DNA from: Escherichia phage nataliec
Length of the DNA stretch: 64,000 bases
Sequence record: MN850611.1
Direction: 5' to 3' (one strand)
Both the position numbers and the translations under genes were made by a program. Below, piece after piece: positions 32,747 to 37,042 of this stretch (position 1 is the first letter of the stretch; every line of letters begins with the position of its first letter). Below the pieces are notes generated by a model. That model was not told where the DNA came from. It searched no databases and saw only the letters and a program-made list of their open reading frames with translations.

Positions 32747-33076
32747 TTAGTCTGCCAACCTTAAATTGAAATTAACACCAAATTTTTCACATACTTCCAA
32801 CATATACTCAAGGGAAACATTACCAGTGAGGTGGATTATGTTGGATACACGAGCCTGAGAGATACCACAAATTTTAGCAACTTGCTCTTGAGAAAGACCT
32901 CTTGATTTAATCTCTCTCTTAAAACGATGTGCAACGAAGTCTCTCATTTCGTCTACATCCATTGGACAAACATAACTCTCCATTTCAGCCTCTCTATCAG
33001 CCTCCCAATCATCTTGTGGAGCATAAGGGTCAAAAGCCTCATTCATCTTTCTTCTTCCGTTTGCGTGAAGTGTCAA
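32747..33076 (-). CDS. HTH (XRE/Cro-like) DNA-binding protein
   Basis: helix-turn-helix 'LSQEQVAKICGISQARVSNIIH'. Confidence 0.6.
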   Translation of the reverse strand: MTLHANGRRKMNEAFDPYAPQDDWEADREAEMESYVCPMDVDEMRDFVAHRFKREIKSRGLSQEQVAKICGISQARVSNIIHLTGNVSLEYMLEVCEKFGVNFNLRLAD

Positions 33077-33251
33077 TCAATGAATCTATGTTTGTAGCCC
33101 TAACCTTTTCACGTTCATCGTTAAGATAATCATCAAGAGCCTTTTCAATCTGTGAATCATCTTGGCAGATAACTGTAAAGACTGTAAAGCCATCTGTATC
33201 ATCAATTATCTTACCATAACCGCTTCTGGGATGTAACTTTTTAAGAGCCAT
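33039..33251 (-). CDS. hypothetical small protein
   Basis: track ORF, overlaps upstream gene start. Confidence 0.35.
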   Translation of the reverse strand: MALKKLHPRSGYGKIIDDTDGFTVFTVICQDDSQIEKALDDYLNDEREKVRATNIDSLIDTSRKRKKKDE

Positions 33252-33252
33252 A

Positions 33253-33636
33253 TCAAATACCTGTGCAGCTTCTGTTTTCTAAGAAATACTCAACACCGTA
33301 CATAGCTTTTTGCATCAAATCTTCTTTAAACTGGATACGATGGTTGAGCATAGCTTGTACATCAATATCGTCACGGTGTTTCTCTTTAATGTTTGCAGAT
33401 TGCAGGAAATACTCTGCAAGAACACGATATTGATAGTCAGTTACCTTATCAGTCATCTCTGTCAAAGACTCTTCAGAGATTGGTTTAAGTAACTCACCAT
33501 TAGCTAGAGCGACACCTTTTACAATCTGGCAAGTGTCTTCTGGAACACCTGATAAGTCCACATTTGGGAGTTCTGTTGCATTGACTGGTAAATTCATTGC
33601 CATAACCATTGCAGCAGCTAATAAAATCTTTTTCAT
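33253..33636 (-). CDS. secreted/periplasmic protein with signal peptide
   Basis: N-terminus 'MKKILLAAAMVMAMNLPVNA' signal-peptide-like. Confidence 0.5.
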   Translation of the reverse strand: MKKILLAAAMVMAMNLPVNATELPNVDLSGVPEDTCQIVKGVALANGELLKPISEESLTEMTDKVTDYQYRVLAEYFLQSANIKEKHRDDIDVQAMLNHRIQFKEDLMQKAMYGVEYFLENRSCTGI

Positions 33637-33720
33637 AATGACCTCAAAGTTATATTAAATTTTGTATTACATTGAGTATAAAAATAAGCTATAACACCTG
33701 ACTTGTCAACAGATTTTATA

Positions 33721-34125
33721 GCTTATTTGGCAGATTTTTTATAAGGCTACTGCCATCCTTCCATACCAAACCCTACCGAACAGAACCATGCTTTGCCATA
33801 CTGGACAACACCTGACCAGACATCACTTAAAAACCCTTTTCAAAGACTCTTAAGTGATGTAATCGAATTTTAATGTAGCTCCGATTAACTACCCATACCT
33901 TGCATTACTTCACCAAACCATACATTACCAGACCATGCCACACCTGTCCAAACTCAACCTCATTAAAAGACCCTCTTTAAAGACCTTTTAATAAGGTAAG
34001 TCTCATTTTTATGTAGTTGAGACTAACTACCCATACCAGACCCTACCTTACCAAACCAGACCTCACCCTACCCCACCATACCGTATACTACCTCATTAAA
34101 AGACCCTGTTTAAAGACCTTTTAAA
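33721..34125. repeat. three tandem ~130-bp intergenic repeat units (CA-rich on plus strand) each ending in a palindromic motif
   Basis: recurring 'tttttat..gtagct..actacccatacc...[CA-rich]...cat(c/t)a(c/a)ttaaaa(g/a)accc' units; palindrome catcacttaa(33820-33829)/ttaagtgatg(33849-33858). Confidence 0.6.
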
Positions 34126-34146
34126 AAGGAGCCTCCGAAGAGGCTA
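34121..34146 (-). terminator. Rho-independent terminator (minus strand)
   Basis: gcctc-cgaa-gaggc hairpin followed on minus strand by CCTTTTTAA. Confidence 0.5.
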
Positions 34147-34156
34147 CCCAGTCAAC

Positions 34157-34597: not shown

Positions 34598-34599
34598 AA

Positions 34600-35202
34600 T
34601 TAAACGTTACCTTCTGAAATAACTTCTACAGAAAAACGACCAAAGCGTGGGCGCCAATCACCTACACCACAAAGGTTACCAGCATTTTCCAAAACCATCA
34701 AGAGTTCCTCTTTGGTGATTTGCTCTTCATCGAACATCAAACCAAACTCTACAGACCAGTCACGGAAGATTGGACGGTAGCTCATAACTCGTGCTGTACC
34801 AATCTTAACAGACTTAGCATAGATAAAGTCTGGATTCTTAGCAAGTTCTTGTGGGTTTGCTGGACAGTTCTTGATAGTCATTGGGAAGACTACATCTGTC
34901 AGCATAATGGCTCGGTCAATTACCTTACCAAGTTTGTTGAGTTTTGCACCAGACTTGATACAAGCCTCAATCATCTCACCGTTCATAACAAAACCTAGCT
35001 GCTCATCGTAGTAACAAGAAGTTACCAGTTGGCTTTCTGCTAAGAGCGCATAATCTTCGTCAGTCTTTTTACGTTTACTGGACAGAGACTTGTGATATTT
35101 TGTCAGAGGATTTAATGGGTCTGACAGCGTATCAGCGTGGCTCAGGAAAGGACGAGTACCAGTGATTTTGATATTTAACAGTTTCATAGCATTTAGCTCC
35201 AC
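34600..35202 (-). CDS. hypothetical protein
   Basis: track ORF. Confidence 0.45.
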
Positions 35203-35269
35203 ACTTTAGTTGATTGTTAAGTTGTTTGTAAAGAACCCTCAACAGAAGACTCTTTAGAAACTTGGTAGA

Positions 35270-35440
35270 TTTTTAACGTGGCTACTACCATCCACCCATA
35301 CCTCACCTAACAACACCTAACAACACAAAACTACACCCCACACCACCGCACCACACCAAACATCACTTAAAAACCCTCTTAGAAGACCCTTAAGTGATGC
35401 TGGTGAGTACCCGTTGGTTTATGCTGCTCAGTATACTCAC
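35270..35440. repeat. fourth copy of the CA-rich intergenic repeat unit with the same terminal palindrome, plus 8-bp inverted repeat ggtgagta/tactcacc
   Basis: catcacttaa 35360-35369 / ttaagtgatg 35388-35397; ggtgagta 35401-35408 / tactcacc 35433-35440. Confidence 0.55.
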
Positions 35441-35464
35441 CAAATTTTCTATGTCAACAACTTT

Positions 35465-36568
35465 TTATTCGTAGTCTCGAATAACTAACCCAACAGGGAA
35501 CTGTAAAGACCCCTTACGAGTCATCTTCTGGAACTGAACCGTTAAAGGCTTCCCGATAAACTCTTCAGGATGCTCAGCAAGATACTGTTTCTTCTCATGA
35601 GTAGTCTTCCATGAGACATCTACAAAGACATTAGGGAGAGTCTCTACAACGAACTTTCCATGACCACGTTTATCGGTCTTGACACCAGTCACTTTAAACT
35701 CTTCAGTGTGCATCTTCTTATGCTTAATCAAGAAGTATGAACGGTGACCACACTCGTAGAAAGATTCTTCAGAGATTGAGCGGTACATTGCACCTTCAAA
35801 CTTAGCTTCAACCCACTTATCATGAGCTTCATCAAACTCTTCCCAAGAATTTACACGACGAGATTTAACAGGAACAACTTTACAACCGTCTCTAAAGTCA
35901 TTCAATGGTGAAGTCTCAATAATATCTCTACGCTCAGGCCACGTCTTAGTGCTGTCACAGATATCGTACCAGTAAAACTTGAGTAAATGTCGGTCAGGAT
36001 TGTCTTCATTTTTAATCATGGAGACAATATCTTCTAAGTCCTGCCCATGAGCATAGATTTCACCATCAAACTCATCAACATCTTTGTGGAGCCTCAACAT
36101 TGCCATAATGTCAGGTATTAGTTCAGTAGGGATTTTATAAACAGTATTCTCACGAGAGTATGCTGTAAATACACTACTGATGCTCAAGTGTCTTGAAATT
36201 CTACAACGTACACCATCCAGTTTCGGTTGAGCATCAGCAGGGAACTTCAGGTACTTTGCATGGCTAACCTTTGCAGCATCATGAGCAAGCTGTACACCAA
36301 CTTTCTCAGTATTCTGTGCAGACTCTTTTGTGTAAGCATAACCTTTACGGTCAACTTGCTTTTTATACTTAGCAGCAACTTCAAAGAGAGCTTGCTGTTC
36401 AGCATTACGCTCATTCTTTTTACCGATGTTTTTAGCTTCTGCTGTATACTCTTCAAACATCATCTTGCCATTTTCTTTACCGTAGGTTGTAATAACTTTG
36501 TCACCTACAGCAACACATGACCAGACGTTAAAAGAGCCGTCTTTATTTTGTTTGTACAGAATTGTCAT
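35465..36568 (-). CDS. ATP-dependent DNA ligase
   Basis: adenylation motif I 'KLDGVRC', 'FDGEIY', 'EGAMYRS', 'KHKK'; ~90-aa N-terminal extension. Confidence 0.7.
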   Translation of the reverse strand: MTILYKQNKDGSFNVWSCVAVGDKVITTYGKENGKMMFEEYTAEAKNIGKKNERNAEQQALFEVAAKYKKQVDRKGYAYTKESAQNTEKVGVQLAHDAAKVSHAKYLKFPADAQPKLDGVRCRISRHLSISSVFTAYSRENTVYKIPTELIPDIMAMLRLHKDVDEFDGEIYAHGQDLEDIVSMIKNEDNPDRHLLKFYWYDICDSTKTWPERRDIIETSPLNDFRDGCKVVPVKSRRVNSWEEFDEAHDKWVEAKFEGAMYRSISEESFYECGHRSYFLIKHKKMHTEEFKVTGVKTDKRGHGKFVVETLPNVFVDVSWKTTHEKKQYLAEHPEEFIGKPLTVQFQKMTRKGSLQFPVGLVIRDYE

Positions 36569-36870
36569 TTTCTCTTACCACCAATCTCTACGTCGATAAC
36601 TTGAACATCGCCAGCAACATCAAACTTATGTATGATGCTTTCCACAGTATAAGTCCAACCATCAATGCGAACCATCTCACCTTCTCGTGGAACTATTGGA
36701 TTACGTTGAGCTACAGTTGTAGTGGAGTGAACAACATCATAACGATAGATATAGTTTACTAGGACTTCCATCGTGAAAACCTCACTCAATAACCGTAGTA
36801 TGTGATTGTCCATTTTTGCCATAGCTGTAAGATGTTGTTGTTTGAGAGTTTGGACATCTGACAACAACAA
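36565..36870 (-). CDS. hypothetical protein (start uncertain; may begin at internal Met near 36771)
   Basis: track ORF overlaps 3' end of lipoprotein gene by ~88 nt. Confidence 0.35.
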   Translation of the reverse strand: MLLSDVQTLKQQHLTAMAKMDNHILRLLSEVFTMEVLVNYIYRYDVVHSTTTVAQRNPIVPREGEMVRIDGWTYTVESIIHKFDVAGDVQVIDVEIGGKRK

Positions 36871-37042
36871 TATCTCTGCTTATAGCATCACCATGTAACT
36901 TGTATACTCTGCAATCTTGCATCTCTGGTGGGAGGCTATAAGAAGCATTTTTATCTTCATAAGAAGGGTTGCAGCCAGATAGAAAAATAACACCAAGCGC
37001 AATCACCACTTTCCACATAACACTACTCCTATTACTGTTCAC
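36782..37042 (-). CDS. putative lipoprotein
   Basis: signal peptide plus lipobox 'VIFLSGC'. Confidence 0.55.
   Translation of the reverse strand: MNSNRSSVMWKVVIALGVIFLSGCNPSYEDKNASYSLPPEMQDCRVYKLHGDAISRDIVVVRCPNSQTTTSYSYGKNGQSHTTVIE

Follow-up and report, generated by a model that had tools for sequence, protein, structure and literature searches.

The Viral Interference Programmable Repeat (VIPR) system was described in two 2026 preprints (bioRxiv 10.64898/2026.04.26.720920 and 10.64898/2026.04.26.720927). According to these reports, the system consists of Vipr, which is a minimal RAMP protein; the accessory protein Vap; and vrRNAs of ∼100 nucleotides (nt), each with 9 to 16 YNNGG units and a conserved tail. 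The NN dinucleotides of a vrRNA pair with double-stranded DNA, every third target base being skipped, and transcription is silenced. In phage SUSP1, one vrRNA lies upstream of the genes and three lie downstream, and most of the guides are aimed at a satellite. Expression of vrRNAs, a Vipr-vrRNA ribonucleoprotein, and transcriptional repression have been demonstrated only for SUSP1 and P. fulva. Here we describe a 64,000-nt stretch of Escherichia phage nataliec (MN850611.1), referred to below as the window, and within it the interval from position 32747 to 37042. Judged from its sequence, the segment from 33729 to 35457 is a type II VIPR locus of the SUSP1 clade. VIPR is already described in the preprints, and the nataliec copy is a new member with new guides. 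The interval as a whole is probably a mosaic and not a single functional cluster: it combines this VIPR locus, aimed at a satellite, with an XRE-type regulator, an exported protein of 127 amino acids (aa), and a DUF4884 lipoprotein. The genes, vrRNAs, and promoters of the interval described below all lie on the minus strand.

The VIPR locus is headed by a sigma-70-like promoter (TTGACA-16-TATACT, 11/12; 35430 to 35457) that is conserved in SUSP1 and in the phages tootiki, Mushroom, and vB_Si_35FD. The vipr gene (34600 to 35187) encodes a RAMP-like guide-RNA-binding protein of 195 aa from the ATG at 35187. Over residues 1 to 195, this protein matched the PDB entry 36pp_D, "SUSP1 Vipr protein" (E 8.5e-129), and by tblastn it was 98.5% identical to the phiSUSP1 protein. 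The following gene, vap1 (34157 to 34597; phrog_5926), encodes a 146-aa VIPR accessory protein that is 99% identical to the product of the SUSP1 gene downstream of vipr; its role is taken from the first preprint (bioRxiv 10.64898/2026.04.26.720920), and a PDB sequence search returned no match for it. Just past vap1 lies a terminator-like GC hairpin followed by a T run (34130 to 34145), and the same hairpin is found in SUSP1, tootiki, and Mushroom.

The first cue to the guide RNAs came from two long intergenic regions, where GGT-rich tracts have a period of 5 nt and each tract precedes a small hairpin. A scan for GGY periodicity found exactly four tracts of 12 to 13 units in the 64-kb window, all of them at the VIPR locus and on its coding strand; elsewhere, the scan found four tracts in SUSP1 and none in phage Mordin or in the seven satellites described below. 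The tract of vrRNA1 (35264 to 35360) has 13 units (35360 to 35296), and the RNA is nearly identical to the upstream vrRNA of Mushroom. The remaining three are vrRNA2 (33999 to 34090; 12 YNNGG units at 34090 to 34031, guide AG AC AT GG AG GA CT TT AA AG CT), vrRNA3 (33861 to 33957; 13 YNNGG units at 33957 to 33893), and vrRNA4 (33729 to 33820; 12 YNNGG units at 33820 to 33761, guide CT CA GT CC AT AA AT TC TC AG TT). Each of the four ends in a pseudoknot tail, in which the loop of a 4-bp hairpin forms base pairs with 5 nt located downstream. When 11 tails from four phages were compared, 99% of cells were paired, and compensatory changes were present in 8 of the 9 pairs; none of 500 shuffles reached the observed pairing values, and all slid controls failed. 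No Rfam family covers the vrRNAs, and the vrRNA array had no blastn match in 5426 E. coli genomes, none of which therefore has a vrRNA of this type at that sensitivity.

The promoter is the same in the nataliec locus and in SUSP1 VIPR (PDB 36pp), as are the arrangement of the vrRNAs (one ahead of the genes and three behind them), their YNNGG repeats, and their pseudoknot tails, and in both phages the predicted target is a satellite with Ounavirinae-like tape-measure and baseplate genes. The two differ in that all four nataliec guide codes are unlike those of SUSP1 and several GG positions of nataliec vrRNA1 are degenerate. Moreover, SUSP1 is a Suspvirus, whereas nataliec is a Felixounavirus, and the proteins flanking the locus are just 33 to 75% identical between them. 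By homology with the published system, the promoter would drive vrRNA1, vipr, and vap1 and then the array of three further vrRNAs. Vipr protomers would polymerize on the GGY motifs of each ∼100-nt vrRNA and present its NN dinucleotides, which would pair with double-stranded DNA, skipping every third base, and block transcription.

With the nataliec baseplate region as the query, 474 of 5426 complete E. coli genomes (∼9%) proved to carry a chromosomal element whose "phage baseplate protein" gene has 90 to 94% DNA identity to window positions 20143 to 20940. The baseplate protein of the satellite in the VIPR preprint is 72% identical to that of SUSP1. The E. coli satellites are ∼10 kb long, are integrated at several chromosomal sites, and carry one or two serine recombinases, Dam-HTH, small genes of unknown function, sometimes an HNH endonuclease, and tape-measure and baseplate genes. 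The 90 to 94% identity of the baseplate gene suggests that the satellite uses Felix O1-like phages as helpers, and because it carries tape-measure and baseplate genes related to those of the phage itself, it is probably a parasite of nataliec.

The four guide codes were scanned under the 1-nt-skip rule against seven E. coli satellite loci, with a Citrobacter satellite as the eighth; a VIPR target was taken to be a site that matches at ≥80% of NN positions under this rule, without self-targeting. The vrRNA2 guide matched 20 of 22 positions (91%) in an unannotated stretch of E. coli ET846 that lies ∼160 bp upstream of Dam-HTH, and the vrRNA4 guide reached the same score inside the first open reading frame (ORF) of the satellites' rightward operon in three E. 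coli strains. Both sites again scored 20/22 in the Citrobacter satellite, the DNA of which is only ∼79% identical. Among 200 order-shuffled guides, none ever exceeded 18/22; skip lengths of 0, 2, and 3 nt gave background scores only, and the best self-match of the guides within the window was ≤73%. At the vrRNA4 site, the skipped bases fall at the third (wobble) positions of codons, as derived by hand from the coordinates, and the VIPR preprint likewise reports skipped bases at codon third positions for natural targets. A relaxed vrRNA4 pattern run over GTDB species genomes found one true satellite (Citrobacter) and one match in Geobacter, which is the single chance match expected. SUSP1 and tootiki guides match these satellites too, at sites in the recombinase and tape-measure genes and in a promoter-proximal region. 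We propose that at least vrRNA2 and vrRNA4 are directed at this ∼10-kb integrated satellite in E. coli and Citrobacter and that the VIPR locus most likely silences it during infection.

By comparison with relatives, the VIPR cassette has been exchanged horizontally and recently, because vipr and vap1 are nearly identical in nataliec and SUSP1 (98.5% and 99%), while the flanks are divergent (33% for the adjacent secreted protein and 75% for the helix-turn-helix [HTH] protein, both described below). The cassette is missing in some relatives, and guide content differs among phages that are ∼91 to 95% identical to nataliec in DNA across the region: in tootiki, two vrRNAs precede the genes and one follows them, and in Mushroom the numbers are one and two. 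In vB_Si_35FD (MZ327261.1; 24769 to 24982 in L003 numbering, equivalent to window 33700 to 35460), vipr and vap1 are missing, and the VIPR promoter and two complete vrRNAs, each with tract and pseudoknot tail, are kept between the ligase and secreted-protein genes. These two vrRNAs are orphan guide arrays, since the locus encodes no cognate protein.

An earlier note, made on this DNA from its letters alone, had singled out three other genes of the interval, encoding an HTH protein, a signal-peptide protein, and a lipobox lipoprotein, as an early-region cluster of candidate superinfection-exclusion or host-takeover genes. All three ORFs are present on the minus strand where the note placed them, and its assignments of an XRE/Cro-type HTH, a cleavable signal peptide, and a lipobox were borne out by the evidence given below. 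The cluster itself did not hold, however: a distance of 3.1 kb, which includes the VIPR locus and the DNA ligase gene, separates the lipoprotein gene from the other two. The three genes are real but mutually unrelated. Scans of the interval's small proteins against Pfam, NCBIfam, and PADLOC matched only the HTH domain.

The HTH protein (32747 to 33046) is 99 aa long, with an acidic N-terminal segment of 40 aa and a C-terminal HTH_3 domain. Residues 53 to 103 of the 109-aa version matched Pfam HTH_3 (PF01381) at 39.4 bits, above the gathering cutoff of 23 (E 6e-10), and the protein also matched phrog_1373, "transcriptional regulator" (E 4e-26). The TTG at 33076, from which the longer version is read, is probably the wrong start, and the ATG at 33046 appears better: annotated homologs are 99 aa long and begin at the equivalent ATG, which overlaps the stop codon of the upstream 70-aa gene. 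That gene (33039 to 33251; phrog_4473, E 2e-45) lies between the secreted-protein and HTH genes and encodes a conserved protein, 57 to 64% identical across Ounavirinae genera, whose basic C terminus is conserved. Identity of the HTH protein is 70 to 75% in Suspvirus and Mooglevirus, and the gene order of secreted protein, 70-aa protein, and HTH protein is syntenic across three Ounavirinae genera. We take the HTH protein to be a DNA-binding regulator of the ordinary XRE type, and it is conserved in Ounavirinae with or without VIPR.

The secreted protein (33253 to 33636; phrog_4332) has 127 aa, ∼107 of them in the mature form, and is predicted to be periplasmic and helical, with two invariant cysteines. 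Its N terminus, MKKILLAAAMVMAMNLPVNA, with TE following the putative cleavage site, has a positive n-region, a hydrophobic core of 11 residues, and V-N-A at positions −3 to −1. A simple signal-peptide heuristic was positive on ∼5% of ORFs, mostly in noncoding frames, and is not decisive alone; the evidence for the signal peptide is therefore its conservation in divergent homologs. In Mooglevirus and Suspvirus, homologs that are just 33 to 34% identical keep a signal peptide with an AxA-type site, ending in AAA or ASA, and retain C36 and C124. The family is tiny, with 6 cluster representatives among 1.84 billion proteins in an exhaustive HMMER search. A PDB sequence search found no match, and the AlphaFold2 model, for which the input held near-identical sequences only, had a predicted local distance difference test score (pLDDT) of 40 and was unusable. 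Its next two downstream neighbors in the operon are 57 to 75% identical between Ounavirinae genera, compared with 33 to 34% for the secreted protein; measured this way, the exported protein diverges unusually fast relative to its operon neighbors. We picture it as a Sec-exported protein, probably disulfide bonded in the periplasm and restricted to Ounavirinae.

The lipoprotein gene (36782 to 37018) encodes a 78-aa precursor (62 aa mature) that has a DUF4884/PHROG 902 domain with two invariant cysteines. An AGGAG motif lies 7 nt upstream of the ATG at 37018, which yields the N-terminal sequence MWKVVIALGVIFLSG directly before the lipid cysteine and is the start annotated in vB_Si_35FD; the GTG at 37042, with which the earlier note had begun the gene, is an unlikely start. 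The lipobox, L-S-G-C, ends in Cys16 and is preceded by a hydrophobic core and Lys. It marks the sole lipobox ORF across the six frames of the window, and a lipobox was present in 55 of the 55 family members examined. The nataliec gene lies between the DNA polymerase and DNA ligase genes. With the lipoprotein as the query, tblastn found the family in 584 phage records, including those of Felixounavirus, Mooglevirus, and T5-like and N4-like Vibrio phages; Acinetobacter phages of Obolenskvirus and with ∼100-kb genomes; T4-like Aeromonas and Acinetobacter phages; Cronobacter, Pectobacterium, Klebsiella, and Enterobacter phages with genomes of ∼142 to 153 kb; and the jumbo phages Asteriusvirus and Eneladusvirus; Erwinia and E. 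coli are also among the hosts. The family thus spans at least six host genera, seven phage groups, and unrelated receptors. At the loci inspected, the DUF4884 gene always lay among small ORFs of the early or replication region, had no conserved neighbor, and was never beside receptor-binding genes.

In the 55-member alignment, four positions are invariant, namely, the lipid cysteine, two further cysteines, and a proline, and the family motif reads Y-x-L-P-x-[EG]-L-x-D-C ... V-V-R-C-P-N-S-x-T-T-T. The first domain cysteine nearly always follows the lipid cysteine at a spacing of 20 residues, and the residue at +2 after the lipid cysteine varies among the 55 members (E in 14, N in 13, D in 12, and S in 8). 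The nataliec protein shares this motif and matches phrog_902 (E 3e-17). Membership in PF16225 (DUF4884) rests on precomputed annotations: precomputed matches exist for 59 of 62 relatives, and a local hmmscan of 15 members gave none even at E 10. A PDB sequence search found nothing for the lipoprotein. Structure prediction and a fold search, which the earlier note had named as checks, yielded an AlphaFold2 model with a pLDDT of 64 from the 55-sequence alignment and no solved structure that resembles it. The protein would be lipidated at Cys16, and a constant linker of ∼10 residues would keep its disulfide-bonded DUF4884 domain (∼50 residues) tethered to a membrane on the periplasmic side. The gene is often overlooked in sequence records. 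In tootiki (MN850647.1; 6489 to 6725 in L001 numbering, window 36565 to 36870), it is unannotated, and an overlapping 100-aa ORF with a TTG start is called instead; several other records have either no gene or two overlapping hypothetical proteins at this site.

One explanation for these envelope-directed genes could be that the lipoprotein, perhaps together with the secreted protein, excludes superinfecting phages by masking a receptor or blocking DNA entry. The FhuA-blocking proteins T5 Llp and Cor of T1, phi80, and N15 are likewise small phage lipoproteins with a similar mature domain and a disulfide, and 62 mature residues with a disulfide are close to the size and design of Llp as given in PMC9586334. 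As a gene apparently cotranscribed with replication genes, it should be expressed before lysis, and the Asn at +2 in Felixounavirus lipoproteins fits sorting to the outer membrane. However, the lipoprotein has no sequence or fold similarity to any solved structure, Llp included (model pLDDT 64), its gene is not beside a receptor-binding gene, and the +2 sorting residue is not conserved across the family, 12 of the 55 members carrying Asp, the inner-membrane retention signal of Enterobacteria. The same DUF4884 domain occurs in Vibrio, Acinetobacter, Aeromonas, Klebsiella, Erwinia, and jumbo phages with unrelated receptors, and because of this distribution a receptor-specific mask of the Llp/Cor type is unlikely. 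Exclusion by the secreted protein could alternatively follow the example of T4 Spackle (Sp, gp61.3), which acts in the periplasm to inhibit the tail-associated lysozyme of related superinfecting phages. Both proteins combine a Sec signal with a small helical mature protein and two cysteines, both genes sit amid replication genes (T4 sp lies between genes 61 and 41), and the fast divergence of the secreted protein, 33% against 57 to 75% for its neighbors, is as expected in an arms race. Mature Spackle has 75 aa, however, compared with 107 aa in nataliec; BLASTP gave no alignment with T4 Sp at E ≤100, and hhalign gave a probability of 2.5% over the signal peptide only. Homology to Spackle was therefore rejected on these two results, and the secreted-protein model (pLDDT 40) is too poor for a fold comparison. 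We consider even an analogous function quite improbable. Neither envelope protein showed sequence or fold similarity to Llp, Cor, or Spackle or to a functionally known PADLOC, Pfam, or NCBIfam family, and nothing connects any of the three genes with known exclusion proteins. The features on which the earlier note based its interpretation are real and the envelope site of the two proteins is well supported, but superinfection exclusion or host takeover through receptor masking has no support beyond those features. Interference among phages is indeed encoded in the interval, in the form of an anti-competitor locus that would act by RNA-guided VIPR silencing and not through envelope proteins.

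That the lipoprotein serves in lysis, as an o-spanin or another partner in outer membrane disruption, is highly improbable. It is small and of outer-membrane type, resembles Rz1-type o-spanins in being a small protein with a periplasmic domain, and has a distant family member in Vibrio phage PhiImVa-1 that is annotated "putative spanin." Nonetheless, the gene lies among replication genes and not in a lysis cassette, the DUF4884 gene has no adjacent i-spanin-like partner in the loci inspected, and Felixounavirus has a separate canonical overlapped spanin pair. The complete genome of vB_Si_35FD contains only two genuine lipobox ORFs, the DUF4884 gene and an ORF of this pair, which consists of a 115-aa type II membrane protein (14088 to 14435 in L004 numbering) overlapping an unannotated 89-aa lipobox ORF (14329 to 14598). 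The pair is next to the rII genes, at a locus outside the nataliec window. An o-spanin identity for the lipoprotein was rejected because the true spanin pair is located elsewhere in the genome. The proteins named "i-spanin" and "o-spanin" in the GenBank record of vB_Si_35FD (MZ327261.1, within 14088 to 14864 in L004 numbering) have no membrane anchor and no lipobox. A further possibility concerns the HTH protein, which might autoregulate the secreted-protein operon through a 19-nt inverted repeat (33682 to 33700 and 33710 to 33728). This repeat brackets the −35 hexamer of a second sigma-70-like promoter (TTGACA-17-TATTTT, 33709 to 33681) in an element at 33681 to 33728, which lies immediately 3′ of vrRNA4 and precedes the secreted-protein gene by 45 nt. 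The palindrome is of perfect length, is centered on TTGACA ahead of the first gene of the HTH-containing operon, and is unique in the window. Its distribution argues otherwise, as the repeat travels with the VIPR/vrRNA cassette: identical copies occur in SUSP1, despite a secreted protein of 33% identity, and in tootiki, Mushroom, and vB_Si_35FD, whereas Mordin, with an HTH gene (70% identical) and no vrRNAs, lacks the repeat. Autoregulation by this route was downgraded accordingly, since the palindrome co-occurs with the vrRNA arrays and not with the HTH gene, and we hold it to be doubtful. Because the repeat directly adjoins the 3′ end of vrRNA4 and a T run comes next, the repeat may equally be a terminator or processing hairpin of the array as an operator.

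In place of a receptor mask, the DUF4884 lipoprotein most likely acts on a conserved component or process of the envelope, since its family spans phages with unrelated receptors. A more far-reaching proposal, which we offer tentatively and think has a small chance of being correct, is that this lipoprotein, possibly with the Ounavirinae-specific secreted protein, represents a new class of phage envelope effector that provides receptor-independent generic exclusion or envelope protection. Under this proposal, many virulent gammaproteobacterial phages that are unrelated to one another would make the effector along with their replication genes, and it would target a conserved, periplasm-facing host component and not a receptor, so as to block secondary infection or to protect the envelope of the infected cell. 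If true, its generic exclusion would be distinct from that of Llp, Cor, Imm, and Spackle.

Several points weigh against the interpretation of the interval as a whole. For vrRNA1 and vrRNA3, no significant target was found in the eight satellite loci; the best satellite match of vrRNA3, 19/24, is not significant, since 12 of 200 shuffles reached it. Exact full-length 1-nt-skip patterns of all four guides had no match in IMG/VR. Dependence of the satellite on nataliec is deduced only from the shared structural genes. For the lipoprotein, distribution is the sole basis on which a conserved envelope target is proposed, and the membrane in which it resides is uncertain, the +2 residue being variable. 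The absence of fold matches is weak evidence, as the models are of low confidence (pLDDT 64 and 40).

The genomic setting is that of a Felix O1-like myovirus. Megablast of positions 32000 to 38200 matched 259 phage records, all from Felixounavirus or other Ounavirinae, the closest being Escherichia phage tootiki (Felixounavirus) at 95% DNA identity, and on these matches the window is assigned to Felixounavirus. The interval lies within a minus-strand block, and GC skew is negative from 30 to 40 kb. The block runs from DNA polymerase (38159 to 40888) through an HNH endonuclease, small ORFs, DNA ligase, and further small ORFs to dihydrofolate reductase and thymidylate synthase (frd/td). It is thus a block for replication and nucleotide metabolism, and the interval falls between the DNA polymerase and frd/td genes. 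The ATP-dependent DNA ligase (35465 to 36568, 367 aa) is annotated as such at the homologous position in tootiki, Mushroom, vB_Si_35FD, and Mordin. The DNA polymerase gene is a single unbroken ORF of 909 aa in nataliec; the tootiki, Mushroom, and vB_Si_35FD records instead show two coding sequences with ∼230 to 380 nt between them, which suggests an insertion or intron in these relatives that nataliec lacks. Directly downstream of the polymerase gene is a gene for an HNH/AP2-type homing endonuclease (37674 to 38177). The coverage by relatives falls off at ∼37.6 to 37.8 kb, and the segment with the homing endonuclease gene is therefore variable.

The earlier reading would prompt the cloning of three unrelated small genes as a supposed exclusion module, and the present evidence redirects that effort. 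The VIPR locus is the sole element of the interval with an anti-competitor mechanism that has been demonstrated, in the published SUSP1-type system. The analysis also defines a clean, widespread, and uncharacterized family of phage lipoproteins (DUF4884/PHROG 902) that is often missed or misannotated in GenBank. The nataliec guides are readable from sequence and point at a satellite family found in ∼9% of complete E. coli genomes, and as guides unlike all four of SUSP1, they lend independent support to the published 1-nt-skip rule. Together, they offer a testable phage-satellite pair for a Felix O1-type phage, a member of a group used in Salmonella typing and biocontrol.

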